Positions 1 through 19,732 of a stretch of 64,000 nt of DNA are shown piece after piece (position 1 is the first letter of the stretch; every line of letters begins with the position of its first letter). The stretch is from NCBI GenBank assembly GCA_964016885.1, contig CAXHJY010000456.1, positions 62,001 to 126,000 of the forward strand, in the 5' to 3' direction. The translations under genes and the position numbers were made by a program. Source of the DNA: Eledone cirrhosa (lineage: Eukaryota). Below the pieces are notes generated by a model. It did no database searches, was not told the DNA's origin, and worked only from the letters and a program-made list of their open reading frames with translations.

Positions 1-1792
1 GCTGCTACTTATTGCACCAGAGCACCGGCCACATATAAAATCTATGTTCTTAGTTAGCTTACCTGTGATCCCACTACATCTTTTATGCACCCATACTTTG
101 CATTTGGGACATAAAATGGAGTTTCTACCTACTCCTTTCCTACACACTGAGCATGGCCATTTCCCGGATGGGACCGGTGCCCTATTTTCCTTCCTACAAA
201 CTAGAACTTTAGTCTTAGATAGGTTAATTTTAAGGCCTTTTGATTCTAGGCCATGCTTCCATGTTTGGAATTTCTTCTCTAGTTCGGCCATTGATTCAGC
301 TATGAGCGTTAGATCATCTGCATATAGGAGTTCCCATGGGCAGCCGGTCTTGAACTCCACTGTTATAGCCTGAAGGGCAATAATAAATAGTAGGGGACTA
401 AGAACGGAGCCCTGATGAACACCAACTTTTACTCTAAACTCTTCACTGTATTCATTGTTAATTCTAACCTTGCTGACTGTTTCTTTATACATGGCTTGTA
501 TAGCTCTCACAAGCCATTCATCAACACCTAGTTTTCTGAGAGCCCACCAGATAATGGAACGAGGGACTCTGTCGAAGGCTTTCTCCAAGTCGACAAAAGC
601 TAAGTATAGGGGTTTACTTTTATCTAGGTACTTCTCCTGTAGTTGTCGTACAATGAAAAGAGCGTCTGTGGTACTTTTGCCTGACACAAACCCGAACTGC
701 ATTTCATCTAGATCAATTCTCTCTCTGATTAGTTGCGCTATTACTTTTTCTGTGACCTTCATGACCTCGTCGATTAATTTAATGCCTCTATAGTTACTCC
801 TATCTAGGGCATCTCCTTTACCCTTGTAGCAGTTCATGATGATGCTGCTACGCCAGTCCTTCGGAACAACCCCATTCTGTATGACTTGGTTTACTATCCG
901 GGTGACCATGGTGTGTCCCACCGTTCCAGAAGCTTTCAGCATTTCAGCAACTATTTCCGAAGGCCCAGCCGCCTTACCCGTCTTCATATCTTTGATTGCC
1001 TTACTTATTATACTACCTTCGACTAACACTGCTGTCCCTCTATTGGGTCGATGTGGGGGAGACTGTCTTTCTCCCATTTATTCTCCTCATTTAGTAGCCT
1101 TTCGTAGTGACACTTCCAAGCTACCTTCTTATCAGCGTCAGTGATGGCAAGTACACCATCATCATTAAGTACACACTTCTCCCCGACAATATCACGGTTT
1201 TCCTTGACACATTGCCTAGCAATCCTGAACACCTCACGTTTTTGGTCCTCGCGTTGTAGAACATGCTTGAACTTTCCTTCCTCTGCTTCCCTTCTTGCGA
1301 AGTACACTTGTCTCCTAGCTTCCCTCCTGGCCACTTGATAGTCTTCTCTACTTCCCCCATCCCGCCATACTTTCCAAGCCTGCTTTTTGGCCTTAATTTA
1401 CTCCTCCACCTTACTGTTCCACCACCATGTTACTCTCCTCCTGCCTATAGGCCTGCTCCAGCCACAGACTTCATCTGCCGCCATCAGCAGGTTTGCTTTC
1501 AGGAATTCCCACTGTTCCTCTATATTGTACGACTCTAAATGCTCTTCCTTACTGTCAAAAGCATCAAGCAATATGCTTTTAAATTTATTTCTGGCTGTGG
1601 GGTCCTTTAGCTTCCATATTTTTCTCCTGAGGATAGTCCTTTTCTGCTGTCGAGTACGTCTCGTCCTGACTATGAGGTCGCTAATTATCAGTCTATGTTG
1701 GGAGGTGCATTCTTCATGGGGGAGGGATTTAGTGTTTACAACAGACACTCTGTCACGTCTTCTGGAAAGGATATAATCTACCTGGCTGGTAT
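1..1792 (-). mobile_element. RTE-clade LINE copy, 5'-truncated within the APE endonuclease region; contains RT and a PHD-type zinc finger; runs off the window's left edge
   Basis: Minus-strand translation gives TSQVDYIL, ECTSQHRL, VTWWWN, YKGKGDALDRSNYRGIKL, FVDLEKAFDRVP, GVHQGSVLSPLLF, WELLYADDL (YADD at 313-324) and CSVC..CPKC..HKRC..CGRC (22-153). One in-frame stop at 1398-1400 and one frameshift near 1035. Collinear with the copy at 12190-15273. Confidence 0.95.
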
Positions 1793-1824
1793 GTGTACAT
1801 ATATATATATATATACATATATAT

Positions 1825-4800
1825 GTGTCCTGGGTATGACATTAAACTAATCCAGTGGCAAGGCTCCAGTTCGGGAGTTCAGGAGCTGTGGGGAATGTGG
1901 AGTTACCTCTTAGTTGTCATAACTCCCAGGTCTGCTCTGGCTCGGAGTAGTAGTACCTGTTAGGACTCCATTTATGTGTTAAATAACTACCTTATTTGAG
2001 TGGCGCCGGTAAGGTATTGTCAGCCATTTAAAAGAAATATGGAGAGTCGATCTAACAGCACTAGGGTTAGAGCCCCTAATTACACTGTCAAGGAGCAGTC
2101 TGGTCGTTATGACTCTGCTGGCTTAGAGCCACAGAGAGGTCCAGTGGATGATGTATCAGCTGTCTCTGAGACAAATATAAAGAATGCAGTTTTGTCCTGC
2201 AGAAGAGCCATCAAAATGGGCACTTTGAATGTGAGGACTATTCGGACTCTGGAGAAGAGAGAGGAGTTGGGACATCTGTTCGAGGAGAGTGGTATACAGA
2301 TACTTGCGATCCAAGAACACAGGATCCTACATGATGATCCGTGAGGAGTGTGATGATTGGGGAGAGGAGCCAGCTCATCACCACATTGGCAGCGAGGAAC
2401 ATGACCAATGCTGCAGTGGGAGGAGTGGGTTTTGTTTTCAGCACAAAAACCAGTCTATTGGTGAGGGAAATAATGTCTGTCTCCCCGCGAGTGTTGAGGG
2501 TGACCTTCAATGGAAACCCAAGACTAACCGAGGGAGACAGTAATGTAAGTGCAGAAGAGTTCCATGAGGAGGTGTGTAGAGCTGTCAACACCACACAAGC
2601 ACACAACATCCTGCTTGTTTTGGGGGACTTTAATGCACATCTGAGTAAGGAGGGCAGTGAAGATCCTTGCTGGTACTTCAATAACAACACCAACCGAAAT
2701 GGAAAGCTACTGAGAGACATTCTGCTGGAAGCGAGCTTGATAGCGACCAACCTAAGGTTTAGGAAGAATCCGGGGAAGATGTGGACCTACATCTCAGATA
2801 TGCACCTGTCCAAGTCTCAGATTGATTTCATTCAAGGCTCAGCCCCGGAGAGTAATCTATGACTGGGGAGCTTTCAAGGAAGATAAGCTACAGGCGAGGT
2901 TCACAGTGGAAATGAGGAACAGGTTCAGTGCTCTGTGTGGAGAGACAAAGGAGAGAGAGATTAGATGGACTGAGGAGAGTGTGACGAGGAGGTACGGGCA
3001 CTTCACCAATGCAGTGGCGGAAGCAAGTGAAACCCTGGTGCCGAGGAAAAAGAACAAAAGGAAGCATGTCAGCTCTGCAAACCCAAAAGTGTGTGCAGCC
3101 AGAGAACACCTGAAAGCTGCCAAGGACCAATTCTATGCTGATCCTAGGGAGGAGAGGATGGAGACTGTTGAAGTGATGAGGGAAGAACTGTGTACCGCTT
3201 ACACCGAGGCCAGAGAGGAGGCACTGATAGAGAAGATCAGAAGTGTGGAGAGAGCGGTTGACAGATCTGGATGTAAGGAGAGCTGGATGATCATCAACGA
3301 GATCACAGGGAGGAAGAGAAGGTGTTCGAGTCAGATCCAGGGAACGGGACCCGAGGATAGGAAGAGGAAATGGCTAGACCATTTTAGGACCCTACTAGGA
3401 GAGCCACCCTCCACAGCCCAGAGCACTGGGGAGATCAGGCGGCTGTTTGAGGAACTGGATGTTGAGACAGAGCCATTCACCAGAGAGGAGCTTCAGAGAG
3501 CCAAGAAGAGGATCAAGGAGGGCAAGGCTCATGGAGAAGATGGAGTGGCATCAGAGGTGTGATTTTGAGGATATCATCCTGGGGTTCTGTAACCGGGCAC
3601 TGGAGAAAGGAGTTGCCCCGAATCAGTGGAGGATCAGTAACATCGTCCCAGTGCCAAAGAAGGGAGATCTTTCTAACACCAACAACTACAGGGGGATCTC
3701 ACTGACGTCACTTGTGGCAAAGACCCTCAACAGAATGATTCTTAACAGGATCTAGCCTGAGATGGAGAAGAAGCTCAGGGAAAACCAGAATGGCTTCAGA
3801 GAGGGAAGATCAACCACCAATCACATCCTGATGCTGAGGAGGATATTAGAGGGAGCTAGAGCAAAGTGCCTTCCTGTGGTCATGGTTTTCATTGACTTTA
3901 GGAAGCCTTTGATTCTGTGGACTGTCACTGCCTGATGAAGATCTTACAGGCTTATGGAATCCCCAAGAAGATAGTGGACCTGATATCACTGTTCTACACC
4001 AACACCAAAGCCCAAGTCATTACACCTGATGGGATGACAGAGTTCTTTGAGATACTGGCTGGAGTGCTCCAGGGAGATACATTGGCTCCCTACCTTTTTA
4101 TCATCGTAGTGGACTATTGTATGCGCCTTGCACTGGAGAAACACCAGGACTCTGGCTTTACTGTAGCACCGGCTCAGAGCAGGAGAGTTAAGGCGAAAAA
4201 GGTATCAGATGCTGAATTTGCCGACAATGTAGTTTTGGTGACAAATACAGTGAAGGAGGCAGAGGATTTGATGCAGGAGGTTGAGACAGTGTCGATGAGT
4301 GTGGGGCTGAGAATGAATGAGACTAAAACAAAATATCTGGTAGAGAATGTTGAGAAGCCAGAGGGGATCACTAATGTAGGCGGGAAGCCACTAGAATTGG
4401 TTGAGGGCTTCCTGTATTTGGGAACAAAGATTGGGAATACAGAAGATGATGTGTTTGAGAGGAAGAGCAAAGCCTGGGCGGCGTGCCACAGCTTGAGATC
4501 GGTGTGGAAGTCGGACCTTTGTAAAGACCTGAAGATCCGCCTCTTCATTGCTGTAGTGGAGTCTGTGCTGCTGTACGGGTCTGAGACTTGGACACTGACC
4601 AAGAAACTCACTCAGATGGTGGATGGGTGCTACACAAGAATGCTGAGGATGGCTCTGAACATTAATCAGTATACACTGAGGATGAAAAACTCAGAGCTGT
4701 ATGGGAGCCTCCAAAAAGTCAGCTCAAAAGTGACACAGAGGAGACTGAGATTAGCTGGACATGCTCACTGACATCCAGAGTTGACATTGCGCTCAGTGCT

Positions 4801-4975
4801 CCTGTGGGAGCCCCTACATGGACACACTGGACGAGGAAGACCAAGGTTAACGTATGTTGATGCCCTAAGGACAGACACTGGTCTGTTGGAGACGTAGGAC
4901 ATGGCAGCGATAATGAGGGACAGAGACCGCTGGAGAGAACTCGTTCATGGATCTCGGGAATTTTACCCGCCTTAG
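1825..4975 (+). mobile_element. Near full-length, decayed RTE-like LINE of a different family (APE endonuclease + RT, no PHD finger)
   Basis: ORF fragments 2000-2344, 2341-2862, 2822-3562, 3447-3755, 3917-4771 carry GTLNVRT/IQEHR, LGDFNAH, SQIDFI, PVPKKGDLSNTNNYRGISL, GVLQGDTLAPYLFI, FADN (degenerate YADD box), VLLYGSETW, RRLRLAGH; the frame continues past a stop to GRGRPR..DRDRWR. Several stops and frameshifts; (TA)n on both flanks. Confidence 0.93.
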
Positions 4976-4981
4976 AAAGAT

Positions 4982-4988
4982 AGATATA

Positions 4989-5050
<62 letters not shown>
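4982..5050. repeat. (TG)n/(TA)n microsatellite
   Basis: Direct reading; lies immediately 3' of the LINE. Confidence 0.95.
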
Positions 5051-5052
<2 letters not shown>

Positions 5053-5173
5053 CAATGAATTATTTAATTTGTTGATTATTCAACAAATTTAATTTATAAC
5101 AGATTAGAAGCACTCAACAATTTTTCTGTAGTATAATATTAATAAATGGAATCTATCTTTATAAAACCATATT

Positions 5174-5234
5174 TATTTTATTATATATATTTCAAAGGTA
5201 CCAAAATTTTGGTACGCTGTCATCAGATAAAATA
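5174..5234 (-). ncRNA. Mirror copy of the minimal hammerhead motif (base of stem II degenerate)
   Basis: Reverse complement reads TATTTTAT CTGATGA CAGC GTACCAAAA TTTTGGTAC CTTT GAAA TATATA TA ATAAAATA. Confidence 0.6.
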
Positions 5235-5352
5235 CAAAAATTGGTTTACAGATAGTGACATATTCAGACAAGAACTTAATAGAACCATTCAAATAGAACT
5301 CACAACATTAAGTTCTTGTCTGAATATGTCACTCTCTGTAAACCAATTTTTG

Positions 5353-5413
5353 TATTTTATCTGATGAGAGCGTACCAACATTTTTGTACCCTTGAAATAT
5401 ATATAATAAAATA
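5353..5413 (+). ncRNA. Minimal type I hammerhead ribozyme motif
   Basis: Stem I TATTTTAT(5353-5360)/ATAAAATA(5406-5413); core CTGATGA 5361-5367; stem II GAG-c-GTAC...GTAC-c-CTT; GAAA 5394-5397; palindromic TATATA stem III/loop; AUA cleavage triplet. Confidence 0.7.
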
Positions 5414-5469
5414 AATATGGTTTTATAAAGATAGCTTCCATTTATTAACATTTTTGATTTATATATATA

Positions 5470-6125
5470 TCATCATCCCATCATCATCATCGTTTAACGT
5501 CCATGTTCCATGCTTGCATGGGTTTGGACAGGAGTTTTCCCACTTGAGGCAAGAGTGGTTGTCTTGCTCGCATAGGACTGTCTGGCAGGTTTTCTACAGC
5601 TGGATGCCCTTCCTAACACCAACCACATTTACAGTGTGGGACTGGGAGGTTTTTACCGTGTTGCCTACACGGCCACATTACAGCGTGGACTGTGTTTTTT
5701 TTGTCGTGACACCTACACGATCTCATTTGTTTCGGCCTGGATGTTGTGGCACCAACATAACTTTACATTGAAAGGGGCGGTGTGGATGGGGTGGGGGTTG
5801 TGGGACGGGGGGTGTATTTTGTTAGAGATGCCTACTGACTGTAGTAGGTTTTACTTTGTATTTAGGTAAGGCGGGTCTTCTCTATTACTGAGTACCGCCA
5901 AAGATCTCGGTCCAGTGACATTGTCTTGGAGAGGTGTAAGTGTGTGAGGTCGGAATTTATCAGGTCGTCCCAGGTTTTTCTGGGTTTGCCTACTCCGTGG
6001 CTACCGTCTATCTTTATTGCCCTGCACTTTTTTATACAGCTGTCGTCTTTCATGCGCATCACGTGACCATACCAACGTAGCCTTCTCTTGAGTAAACAAC
6101 ATCTGATGCCTCTTATTTCTAATTT
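5470..6125 (-). mobile_element. 5'-truncated RTE LINE end with a long 3' region terminating in an (ATG)n tail
   Basis: RRLRWYGHVMRMKDD..GKPRKTW..DRDLWR (about 5862-6090), then two 48-bp-like units, GGTGTTAGGAAGGGCATCCAGCTGTAGAAA and CCCATGCAAGCATGG..GGACGTTAAACGATGATGATG; bounded by (TA)n. Confidence 0.8.
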
Positions 6126-6687
6126 TTCCCTATATATATATATATATATATATTGGGGGGGGGGGGGGGGGGGGTCATGTTGCCCAATAAAAAAAACACA
6201 TGCACCATATGATTTTCACTTTTTCATTATTACTAGTTATTGGTTAGTTCATAAAAGTTCTTCAAGAATTGTCTGCTCTCTTTTGTGCTTCTCCTTCTTT
6301 CTGGTGTGTGTGTGGTCTATAGCAGGAGTTGGGTTGGCAACTTTGTTTTAAAGTAGAGCAGATTGGGTGTGTTTTTATGTGTTGTGGGTCTAAGCAAATA
6401 AAAAATGAAACCATGTTCACACAAAACTATGGAAGCAGCTTGTTATTCTAATTACTGAAATGTTTGGCATTGTCAGTATTTAACAGGGAATAAAATATAT
6501 TTTTGTTTGTCTTGCTCTATTAATTTATCTCACACCTGGGCAAACTTTTGTCACCAACTGAGAGCCTCACTTTTTTATTTATTTCGAAACATTATTTCAT
6601 TTGCGGCAACTGAAAAGTGAGCCTTATTTTTCTGTGCAAAATGTTATTGTTTACTATCTGAAGATTAATAAGGAAAATAATTTTTTG

Positions 6688-12189: not shown

Positions 12190-15100
12190 GGAAGGATGTT
12201 AGGAAGGGCATCCAACCAGTGTATCAATGCCAAAACAATTATAAGCACAGCAACAAATATATAGGAGCAACAAAAATATGAAGACGTCGCATCTCAGAGT
12301 TGCAACACTTAATGTTGGCACTCTCACAGGTAGATCTGGTGAAATAGCGGAGATGTGCTGCGTGCAAGAGGTGAGATGGAGAGGTGCCTCTGCAAGACCA
12401 GTCGCAGACAAACATATTAGCTCTAAGCTTTTCTGGGTAGGTAAGGATGATGGGTTAGGGGGAGTAGGCATTTTCCTGGCTGAGGGATGGATCAATAAGA
12501 CAATAGAGGTAGTTTGAGTTAATAATCGAATAATTAAGCTTAGATTAGTTGTAGGCAGGAGACTACTGACAATCATCTCTGCCTAGGCAAAGAAGAGTAA
12601 GACTGCTTTTACGAACAACTTTTACAAACAACCGCAATGACAGAGGACGGAGACATCATTATGCTAGCAGGTGACTTCAATGGTCATGTTGGACAGCTCG
12701 AGGATGGTTACACTGGGGTACATGGTGGGCACGGTTACAGCTCAAGAAATGAAGAAGGAGTGAGACTTCTTGAATTTTGTGATGCAAGTACTATTTGCAA
12801 CACTAACTTCCAGAAACCTGTCAACCACCTAATAACCTACAAATCAGGCGAGCACATAAGCCAGATTGATTTCTTACTAGTTAGGCAGCAGGACAGGCAG
12901 ATGGTGTCAAATACCAAGGCATACCCTGGGGAAGAATGTACCCCACAGCATAGGTTAGTCGTTAGTGATATCTCGGAGGGCAAGAGATGGAATCAGACAT
13001 ACAGAAAGGTGTGGAGAAGAAAGGTCTGGAAGCTAAAAGACCTTTCACTAAAATACAAATTTAGGAAAGCCCTTCAAGATGTGTATGACGAAATGGAAGA
13101 TGATTTAGAGACGTATGACATAGACAATAACTGGAATTTCTTACATGACAACTTACTGCAGGCTACTGATGAAACTTGTGGCTGGAGCAGAGCTCCAACC
13201 AGACAGAGAGTGACCTGGTGGTGGAACAGCACAGTAGATAAGGCCATTAGAGACAAAAGACTAACATGGAAGGCTTGGAAAAAAGGTGGGAGTAGAGAAG
13301 GATATACAGCAGCTAAGAGAGAAGCTAGACATCAAGTGTACTTAGCACGCAGGGAGGCTGAGAGTAGGTGGTTTGCCAATGTTCTGTGACGGGAAGATCA
13401 GAGGCGTGAGGTGTTCCACATTGCAAGGCAGTGTTTCAATGCAAATCAGGATGTTGTTGGAGATAAATGTGTCTGGAATGATGCCGGTGTACTTAGTGTC
13501 ACAAATGATCAGAAGAAGGAGGCCTGGAAATGTCATTATGAGAGACTGATGAATGTGGAGAACGAATGGGAGAGAGAGAAATTACCCTCAGTAGATCCGA
13601 CAGAGGGACCAGCTATTGAGATTGACGAATATAGAGTCCAAGAGGCGATTAAGGAAATGAAAAATGGTAAGGCTGCTGGACCATCGGGGATAGTTGCTGA
13701 GATGCTGAAGGCATCAGGAGACGTAGGCACTAAACTGGTTGCACGCATCATCAATGAGGCTATATATGGTGGTGTCATACTCAAAGACTGGTGCAGCAGT
13801 ATTCTCATAAATTGCTACAAAGGTAAAGGGGATGCTCTGGAGAGGAGCAATTATAGGGGTATAAAACTGATGGATCAGGTTATGAAAGTGGCAGAAAGGA
13901 TATTAGCACAACTAATTAGAGAAAGGGTCAAACTAGATGAGATGCAGTTTGGTTTTGTGCCTGGGAAAAGTACAACAGATCCCCTCTTCTTGGTGAGACA
14001 ATTACAAAAGAGGTTCTTAGAGAAGAATAAGCCACTATACTTAGCCTTTGTTGACCTAGAGAAGGCCTTTGATAGGGTACCCCGATCTGTCATCTGGTGG
14101 TCCCTAAGGAAACTAGGTGTTGAGGAATGGCTTGTGAGGACAGAGCAAACTTTGTACAGAGGTGCTGTCAGTAAAGTCAGGGTAGGAATGGAGTTTAGTG
14201 AGGAATTCCAGATACAAGTAGTAGTACATCAAGGTTCTGTCCTCAGCCCGCTCTTGTTCATTCTAGTCCTCCAAGCCATAACAGAGGAGTTTAAGACTGG
14301 CTGTCCATGGGAACTTCTCTATGCTGACGATCTGGTTCTTATAGCAGAATCAGTAGAGGAGCTAGAGAATAAATTCTGGCTGTTGGAAACAGCAGTTGGA
14401 AGCAAGAGGACTGAGAGTGAACCTAGCTAAGACAAAAGTGTTGATGAGTAGAAAAGAGGACAAAACTCTGATTCCATCAGGGAAATGGCCATGTTCGATA
14501 TGCAGAAAAGGAACTGGCATAAATTCTATAAAATGCACACAATGCAGATCCTGTGTGCACAAGAGATGTAGTGGGATAGCAGGCAAACTAACAGGTAGGG
14601 AGAAATACGTGTGCAGTAGATGTACAGGGAAATTAGACAGTAGAAGTTGCATTGATAGACACATTTTTCAAGTGCAGGCGGATGCTATAGAAGTGGTGGA
14701 TAGCTTCCGGTACCTAGGAGATCAGATTAGCATGGGAGGGGGTGTTCCGAAGCCATAGTATCTAGAATAAGGACGGGTTGGAAGAAGTTTAGGGAGCTGC
14801 TTCCTCTGCTGACGAAGAAGGGTATGAAAGGCCGGTTATATGATGCCTGTGTGAGGAGCGCGATGCTGCATGGTAGTGAGACATGGGCAGCAACTGCAGA
14901 GGATATGCGACACCTGGAGAGAAAGGAGGCAAGCTTGAACGACCCAGCATGGATGTGTTGAGAGAGAAACTGCGTCTGAGAAGTATAGAATGTAGTGTGC
15001 GAGAGAGGAGACTGCGGTGGTATGGACATGTGATGCGCATGGAGGATGACCGATGGGTGAAGAAATGCCAGGAAATGCCAGTTGAAGGAAGACGTGGTAG

Positions 15101-15273
15101 AGGTAGACCACGAAAAACATGGGCGGAGGTGGTGAGAACAGACCTCAGATCACTGAAGCTCACGGTGGAGATGACGAAGGACCGGGACAAGTGGAGAGAT
15201 GCTGTGCTGAATAAGACCCGTCCCACCCTTGCAAGCAGGGAAAAGCGGACGTAAAATGATGATGATGATGATG
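12190..15273 (+). mobile_element. Near full-length decayed RTE-clade LINE (APE endonuclease, RT, PHD finger, (ATG)n tail)
   Basis: ATLNVGTL/CVQEVRW, AGDFNGHVG, SQIDFLL, FVDLEKAFDRVP, HQGSVLSPLLF, LLYADDL, C4HC3 finger 14492-14623, RRLRWYGHVMR, GRGRPRKTW, stop at 15254 then (ATG)n. Stops, frameshifts and internal deletions; (TA)n on both flanks. Confidence 0.96.
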
Positions 15274-18288: not shown

Positions 18289-18430
18289 TCATCATCATCA
18301 TCATCATCGTTAGCATGGATTAGACAAGTTGTCTCGTTTGAGGCAAGTTGGGTCAGGTGACCGTGTCTTGCTCACACAGAACTGTTTCTAGTTTGGTTTC
18401 TGTGGCTGGATACCCTTCTTAATGCCAACC
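18288..18430 (-). mobile_element. RTE-tailed SINE/LINE 3' end contiguous with the 48-bp array
   Basis: (CAT)n, TAGCATGGATTAGAC, GCTGGATACCCTTCTTAATGCCAACCAC. Confidence 0.75.
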
Positions 18431-19732
18431 ACATTTACAGTGTGGGCTGGATGCTTTTGTCGTGACATCTACATGACCACTTTACAGCTGGGGCTGGGTG
18501 CTTTTTGTCGTGACACCTACACAACCACTTTACAGTGTGGGCTAGGTGCTTTTTGTCGTGACACCTACACAACCACTTTACAGTGTGGGCTAGGTGCTTT
18601 TTGTCGTGACACCTACACAACCACTTTACAGTGTGGGCTGGATGCTTTTTGTCATGACATCTACATGACCACTTTACAGTGTGGGCTAGGTGCTTTTTGT
18701 CGTGACACCTACACGACCACTTTACAGCTGGGGCTGGGTGCTTTTTGTCGTGACACCTACATGACCACTTTACAGCTGGGGCTGGGTGCTTTTTGTCGTG
18801 ACACCTACACAACCATGTTACAGTGTGGGCTAGGTGCTTTTTGTCGTGACACCTACACAACCACTTTACAGTGTGGGCTAGGTGCTTTTTGTCGTGACAC
18901 CTACACAACCACTTTACAGTGTGGGCTAGGTGCTTTTTGTTGTGACACCTACACAACCACTTTACAGTGTGGGCTGGATGCTTTTTGTCATGACATCTAC
19001 ATGACCACTTTACAGTGTGGGCTAGGTGCTTTTTGTCGTGACACCTACACGACCACTTTACAGCTGGGGCTGGGTGCTTTTTGTCGTGACACCTACACAA
19101 CCATGTTACAGTGTGGGCTAGGTGCTTTTTGTCGTGACACCTACACAACCACTTTACAGTGTGGGCTGGATGCTTTTTGTCATGACATCTACATGACCAC
19201 TTTACAGTGTGGGCTAGGTGCTTTTTGTCGTGACACCTACACAACCACTTTACAGTGTGGGCTGGATGCTTTTTGTCGTGACACCTACACAACCACTTTA
19301 CAGTGTGGGCTAGGTGCTTTTTGTCGTGACACCTACACGACCACTTTACAGCTGGGGCTGGGTGCTTTTTGTCGTGACACCTACACAACCACTTTACAGT
19401 GTGGGCTAGGTGCTTTTTGTCGTGACACCTACACGACCACTTTACAGCTGGGGCTGGGTGCTTTTTGTCGTGACACCTACATGACCACTTTACAGCTGGG
19501 GCTGGGTGCTTTTTGTCATGACACCTACATGACCACTTTACAGCTGGGGCTGGGTGCTTTTTGTCGTGACACCTACACGACCACTTTACAGTGTGGGCTA
19601 GGTGCTTTTTGTCATGACATCTACACGACCACTTTACAGTGTGGGCTAGGTGCTTTTTGTCATGACACCTACACAACCACTTTACAGTGTGGGCTAGGTG
19701 CTTTTTGTCATGACATCTACACGACCACTTTG
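18428..19732. repeat. 48-bp minisatellite, about 27 copies
   Basis: Unit CCACTTTACAGTGTGGGCTAGGTGCTTTTTGTCGTGACACCTACACAA; 16-aa periodicity in the ORF track. Confidence 0.97.

Follow-up and report, generated by a model that had tools for sequence, protein, structure and literature searches.

The locus

The window analysed here is a 64,000-nucleotide stretch of Eledone cirrhosa DNA (contig CAXHJY010000456.1, positions 62,001 to 126,000 of the forward strand). It contains two inverted arms, at 5135-5280 and 5307-5452, which are each 146 nt long, 95% complementary and separated by 26 nt. The original prediction placed a 310-bp palindromic unit at 5139..5448. The palindrome is real, but its extent was underestimated: the left arm has an additional tail, absent from the right arm, that extends to 5051, and therefore the insertion spans 5051-5458 (408 bp). 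It lies between two TA tracts and is composed of the following parts.

4999..5050, no strand: (TA)n target, left flank; 26 TA units, just past the 3′ end of a decayed LINE
5051..5280, minus strand: left arm, an inverted, 5′-truncated 3′ end, almost certainly of a Hydra-clade element; long terminus (+141 from the cleavage site), reaching inward to about -101
5051..5134, minus strand: tail; ~88 nt long in the family and slightly shortened by a deletion in the window copy
5174..5234, minus strand: left hammerhead motif, minimal type I; core intact, base of stem II damaged; predicted cut after 5182
5281..5283, no strand: 3-nt filler at the head-to-head junction, which is unique in the genome
5284..5458, plus strand: right arm, the 3′ end in direct orientation; from -122 (the commonest 5′ boundary in the family and the putative RNA start) to the short terminus at +53
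5353..5413, plus strand: right hammerhead motif, minimal type I; core intact, self-complementary stem III (AUAUAUAU); predicted cut after A5405
5460..5470, no strand: TA run, right flank

The hammerhead of each arm points outward from the centre of the palindrome. Contigs from two runs of one sample include thousands of repeat pieces over this stretch, none of them spanning it, and are uninformative on the junction.

The window also holds other repeats. A decayed LINE at 2338-4975, which we take to be of the RTE type, ends right before the (TA)n target and has endonuclease-like and RVT_1 frames (E 6.6e-15); similar remnants are found at 1023-1841 (minus strand) and 12601-15254 (plus strand). 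A tandem array of 27 copies of a 48-bp unit resembling the dispersed repeat at 5620-5720 occupies 18428-19731. From about 22500 to 63400 there is a ~41-kb array of GGT, TGT and TAG triplets with an extreme strand skew (19,546 G, 19,152 T and 469 C from 22501 on). The G-rich skew suggested a telomere, an idea we rejected because these triplets are not telomeric; the array may be a genuine satellite or may have arisen in assembly.

Hammerhead motifs in the window and in related copies

Scanned in full with a descriptor, the 64-kb window yields exactly two hammerhead motifs, which are the oppositely oriented pair of the original prediction. The right motif is made up of stem I (TATTTTAT/ATAAAATA), CTGATGA at 5361-5367, GAAA at 5394-5397, TATATA and TA, with A5405 as H17, and position 5182 is H17 of the left motif. 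Both have a stem I of 8 bp and a complete core (C3 U4 G5 A6 N G8 A9, G12 A13 A14, A15.1-U16.1, H17). Stem II is altered in each: its base in the left motif has C where the family has G, and its top in the right motif carries a G-to-T change. The proposed check against the Rfam hammerhead model was negative, in that no hammerhead family matches positions 4000-6600 at E<=10; the scan gave sub-threshold hairpin matches alone, with weak microRNA scores far below threshold.

Copies elsewhere in the genome nonetheless support the assignment to minimal type I hammerheads with a palindromic stem III. A search of the genome with a 35-letter ribozyme pattern gives 506 exact matches, against none for its reversed control, and therefore the motif is not due to chance; a looser pattern recovers 35,949 motifs of this hammerhead type genome-wide (control 0). 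The core is intact in 120 of the 146 family arms that span it, a set in which 40 loci were chosen on part of the core, and subfamily-diagnostic changes spare the core and stems I and III. Stem III lay outside the search pattern used to collect 95 arms from related families. In these arms it reads TATATA (35) or TGCGCA (24), both palindromes, or TATGTA (21), which pairs via G-U, such that stem III is able to pair with a second copy in 80 of the 95. The palindromic stem III is thus kept by covariation, and the switching among pairable forms supports a dimer-dependent ribozyme in the parent element.

Two positions of stem II, 5369 and 5382 (family -37 and -24), vary in every subfamily (A/T/G and T/G, respectively), and the two arms of an insertion frequently disagree at them. 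Variation at 5382 may come from template switching in the palindromic loop, and that at 5369 could be a reverse transcriptase (RT) error hotspot. Four loci (L101, L104, L107 and L134) are broken at the TATATATA of stem III by a common foreign sequence that ends in a GC-rich hairpin and CTAG or GTAG and is presumably Helitron-like.

The parent element

A search with a single arm returns copies throughout the genome at 90-97% identity (51 matches, obtained by scoring 40 of the 1,868 candidates). Many copies continue upstream through ~1.3 kb of AT-rich sequence into a broken open reading frame (ORF). Of 20 loci retrieved by their ORF matches, 18 have the 3′ end within 10 kb as well. Three loci (L063, L068 and L071) join a window-type 3′ end to an ORF with KSDKTNNLY, GLYRDD, CNCRNKLSCPL and the C-terminal YNYIGATSTKFKERW. 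Two of these, L068 and L071, have a partial tandem form comprising an upstream copy of the end, the tail, an ATG and RRLRWRAF, a conservative variant of the N-terminal RWK motif of the clade discussed below; in these full-length copies the tail continues into the leader and the start of the ORF. By motif order in L063, L066, L072 and others, the RT is followed by a C-terminal GIY-YIG-like endonuclease, in broken frames. The suspected link to Penelope elements is borne out by these copies.

The Hydra clade is described as having an RT with a C-terminal GIY-YIG-like domain, DKT, CxCX5C, CxxC and CxH motifs, a (TA)n target and a hammerhead near the 3′ end (Craig et al., 2021, PMC8557442). In the copies examined here, DKG is replaced by DKT (KSDKTNNLY or KTDKTNNLY in 8 of 20 loci scanned), the CxCX5C linker is present as CNCRNKLSC and variants, and CxxC and CxH motifs lie around a conserved E and N (ICHLCIEE, SCMHR). 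Insertions lie in (TA)n, and the hammerhead stands in direct orientation near the 3′ end, 45-61 nt ahead of the short terminus region. The published Hydra-1_Obim peptide, in the supplement of the same paper, has the same motifs when compared by eye; inspected likewise by eye and without alignment, the L063 endonuclease translation reveals no CCHH motif. The GIY-YIG match of a related family's domain is weak (E 0.04), Pfam has no match for three fragments of L031, and every copy read carries stops or frameshifts, with no intact ORF found. We conclude that each arm is almost certainly the pseudo-LTR, or 3′ end, of a Penelope-like retroelement of the Hydra clade, a clade assignment drawn from motifs and by-eye peptide comparison. 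The Naiad clade was rejected because its domain order differs.

Endonuclease domains of more distant Hydra-type families, with the CxCX5C linker, are present at L034:916-1725, L065 and L074, and L080 and L081 (contig C1706) hold a rearranged block of the element that occurs three times over, at intervals of ~7.5 kb.

Termini, targets and pairing across insertions

We mapped 129 insertions on coordinates anchored at the cut site. Before counting, 11 loci were removed, ten from the same genomic place and one likely segmental duplicate (kept in one mapping step), and for divergent subfamilies the inner boundaries are approximations, having been set by BLAST with a single reference. The 3′ ends fall at two fixed termini, +53 (short) and +141 (long), which are 88 nt apart, and 135 of 162 classed termini adjoin (TA)3+, compared with a background of 614/5000. 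A head-to-head partner is found in 45 of the 129 insertions, or in 33 of 102 when the pattern-anchored set is taken alone. Among 39 short copies that look solo, 8 have a small inverted stub of the long end.

The two termini are paired in a nearly strict manner. Where both ends of a pair could be classed, 35 of 37 combine one long with one short end (p about 5e-9 vs 0.5), and the window copy, with its long left and short right end, fits this rule. The first 50 pairs on contig 1, drawn from several families and including two shared with the mapped set, comprise 34 long+short, 1 long+long and 15 unclassed pairs.

The 5′ ends also cluster. After exclusion of the single-arm-search loci, whose boundaries were biased by the query, 26 of 135 lie within -126..-117, and the right arm of the window begins at -122. 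A TCACT initiator-like word occurs at this position in the family, as has been noted for rotifer elements (PMC3846280), and we infer that the -122 region is the RNA 5′ end. How far the two arms reach inward was counted by hand from the mapping: the short arm extends beyond the long arm by more than 10 nt in 17 of the 35 long+short pairs (window included), the reverse is true in 7, and the arms are about equal in 11.

Arms of one insertion belong to the same subfamily class in 20 of 23 cases. In a second family, 14 of 240 polymorphic cells are discordant between the arms of one insertion, compared with 0.37 between loci, and two different parent RNAs as a general rule are therefore not supported in that family. 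Some pairs of the window's family (L025) may have had two parents. The two variable stem II positions are discordant between arms in 10/28 and 12/31 cases, against a 5% background, which a single template fails to explain without mutation hotspots; either such hotspots or a minority of two-template events could be responsible.

Origin of the head-to-head insertions

The 408-bp insertion is very probably a head-to-head arrangement of truncated Hydra-clade 3′ ends in (TA)n that probably arose in one event from two joined reverse transcripts. That both were primed at the target, one from each cut end, we regard as a reasonably good but less secure part of this reading. The endonuclease would cut both target strands at (TA)n; the long start site would be used at one cut end and the short start site at the opposite one, and both transcripts would be copied from the same source element. 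The right arm may have run off the RNA 5′ end, after which the transcripts would be joined near that end, with end joining adding the filler. The hammerheads would be passengers in this insertion.

Activities of this kind are known for a related protein. In the published in vitro experiments, a Poseidon protein cuts and extends both target strands from two start sites that delimit the tail, and ribozyme cleavage is not required for insertion (PMC11167929). No difference in start site was seen between strands in these reactions, and so the system does not predict the strict long/short rule.

Self-priming, as proposed for rotifer Penelopes (PMC3846280), would instead have a single cDNA fold back at a hairpin near its end and copy itself, with the endonuclease trimming one end. 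The 5′ boundary peak does sit at a hairpin, arms usually share subfamily alleles, and several junctions in the second family are centred on a palindrome. However, in the 17 long+short pairs whose short arm reaches further inward, only the long arm has the tail, such that each arm holds sequence the other lacks; therefore neither can be a fold-back copy of the other. The same difficulty is posed by L031, where a 42-nt inverted stub stands beside a 2.9-kb arm. Because of these non-nested arms, two separately primed cDNAs fit better, and we consider self-priming unlikely.

The original prediction saw here a non-autonomous fold-back ribozyme element, which under this reading would be transcribed and re-inserted whole by Penelope proteins, and its author asked whether the palindrome recurs. 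It does so in abundance: genome-wide, head-to-head pairs with a spacing of 105-135 nt number at least 2,467 and belong to several related families, compared with 6 tail-to-tail pairs (counted with two patterns, the second of which exceeds the first by one base at either side). In the second family, moreover, 4 of 16 sampled loci have the same centre length and central sequence. Yet the window junction has 1 genome match at up to 1 mismatch, junction coordinates differ in 43 of the 45 head-to-head pairs of the window's family, and the ends are asymmetric, a long tail facing a short end. The remaining junctions of the second family differ by short insertions at a shared position, which is what new joining events at a fixed RNA end would produce. 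Since its junction is unique in the genome, the window palindrome was not copied as a unit; it is one of thousands of such insertions, formed separately, and a fold-back element is very improbable. A DNA-transposon MITE was rejected on the same asymmetry and unique junction and on the retroelement source of the arms.

A second head-to-head hammerhead pair, of a related family, lies ~4.5 kb ahead of the window at L050:5251-5514; L050:7139-7402 contains part of a related endonuclease. Nearly all fold-backs of a family whose stem III is TGCGCA (L194, L200, L212, L230 and others) are joined at a single palindromic spot, which makes this family well suited to mapping the 5′ end of the RNA.

We give roughly equal weight to the case for and against two-ended priming as an obligate step of Penelope transposition, in which each side of the cut would be assigned one RT start site, the same source RNA would be copied to a defined 5′ end, and the products would be joined head to head.

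Predicted RNA folding and ribozyme behaviour

Folding predictions bear on the proposal that the locus could self-cleave. Read-through RNA has a predicted folding energy of -206 to -213 kcal/mol, in a structure that pairs the whole core and buries the sense motif in a 146-bp hairpin, and opening the ribozyme is calculated to cost about 70 kcal/mol, such that self-cleavage from this RNA would be disfavoured by that amount. The two window hammerheads cannot pair with each other within one RNA, and an RNA begun at the palindrome centre would carry one monomer. Monomers fold with z-scores of -0.2 to -1.9, and the hammerhead fold is not the minimum. In a tandem transcript of the parent, the hammerheads are predicted to dimerise through the palindromic stem III. 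The genomic copies have no 5′-end peak at the predicted cut site (4 of 135), and thus give no sign of cleavage in vivo; we rejected cut-site truncations as such a sign, since several reflect TA ambiguity or later insertions. The window copy is most likely inert.

Use of the hairpin or ribozyme by the host, as an siRNA source, an ADAR substrate or a site of regulatory cleavage, is the least probable reading of all, for although the predicted duplex has perfect runs of 43, 33 and 27 bp and a LINE remnant on the plus strand ends directly upstream, the arms differ at 8/148 positions, stem II is damaged in both motifs, and the core decays among copies about as fast as the downstream flank (42/1834 vs 142/5780).

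Relationship to published systems

According to the published descriptions, the window's family shares its domain order, motifs, (TA)n target and near-3′ hammerhead with Hydra-clade elements such as Hydra-1_Obim and Penelope-13_HM, and differs from the clade in several respects. These include RWR in place of RWK, a ~1.3-kb AT-rich 3′ UTR, a tail of 88 nt rather than 30-40 nt, a length of ~3.6-3.9 kb rather than under 3 kb as for most Hydra families, an 8-bp A/U stem I with a long stem II, and a very high copy number; the ribozyme sequence also differs from that of Hydra-1_Obim.

The arrangement has clear precedents. Penelope-13_HM is reported to have an inverted 5′-truncated copy with a hammerhead on both strands (PMC8557442), and inverted 5′-truncated copies, often with the tail at one end, and TA targets are described for these clades (PMC8557442, PMC3846280). 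The minimal hammerheads of Penelope pseudo-LTRs, as described by Cervera and de la Pena (2014, PMC4209133), have a conserved core, a long helix II and a palindromic helix III and are proposed to be dimer-dependent, with low activity in vitro. Most are solo motifs from truncated elements, and dual motifs on opposite strands, 100-700 bp apart, are also recorded there. The window motifs resemble these hammerheads in core, long helix II and palindromic helix III, and differ in a longer stem I and, in our pairing, in a stem II closed by G-U rather than G-C.

As far as those accounts go, head-to-head inversion with a one-sided tail is shared with inverted pLTR insertions of Adineta vaga (PMC3846280), and two RT start sites bounding the tail are shared with Poseidon PAc (PMC11167929). 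Unlike in these systems, the shortness of both window arms makes a 408-bp palindrome of the whole insertion, and the long/short pairing in the family is near-strict. Non-LTR retrozymes (PMC7229834; bioRxiv 10.64898/2026.07.22.740005) are likewise short, AT-rich, hammerhead-bearing and related to Penelope ends, but they are head-to-tail tandem repeats, whereas the window holds a single inverted pair; none of the first 100 of the 506 pattern matches has a same-strand neighbour within 1 kb. A search of the openly accessible literature did not find the term 'twin priming' used with Penelope, and the available part of PMC13282606 does not mention hammerheads or palindromes. Thus, opposite-strand hammerhead pairs (2014), inverted 5′ copies, one-end tails and TA targets were known already, and the window's family differs in its 88-nt tail, long 3′ UTR and scale.

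Implications

The single window locus matters little, being one decayed copy among thousands. Its family, however, is a large natural data set on how Penelope elements make inversions and one-sided tails, and it defines the start sites exactly, points to a likely 5′ end of the RNA and offers a long/short rule that can be tested. Palindromes of this kind can be mistaken for MITEs or microRNA hairpins. If two-ended priming is indeed obligate, then one model would account for the tail, the inversion and solo pseudo-LTRs, and the process would have seeded the genome with thousands of near-perfect 150-bp RNA hairpins.
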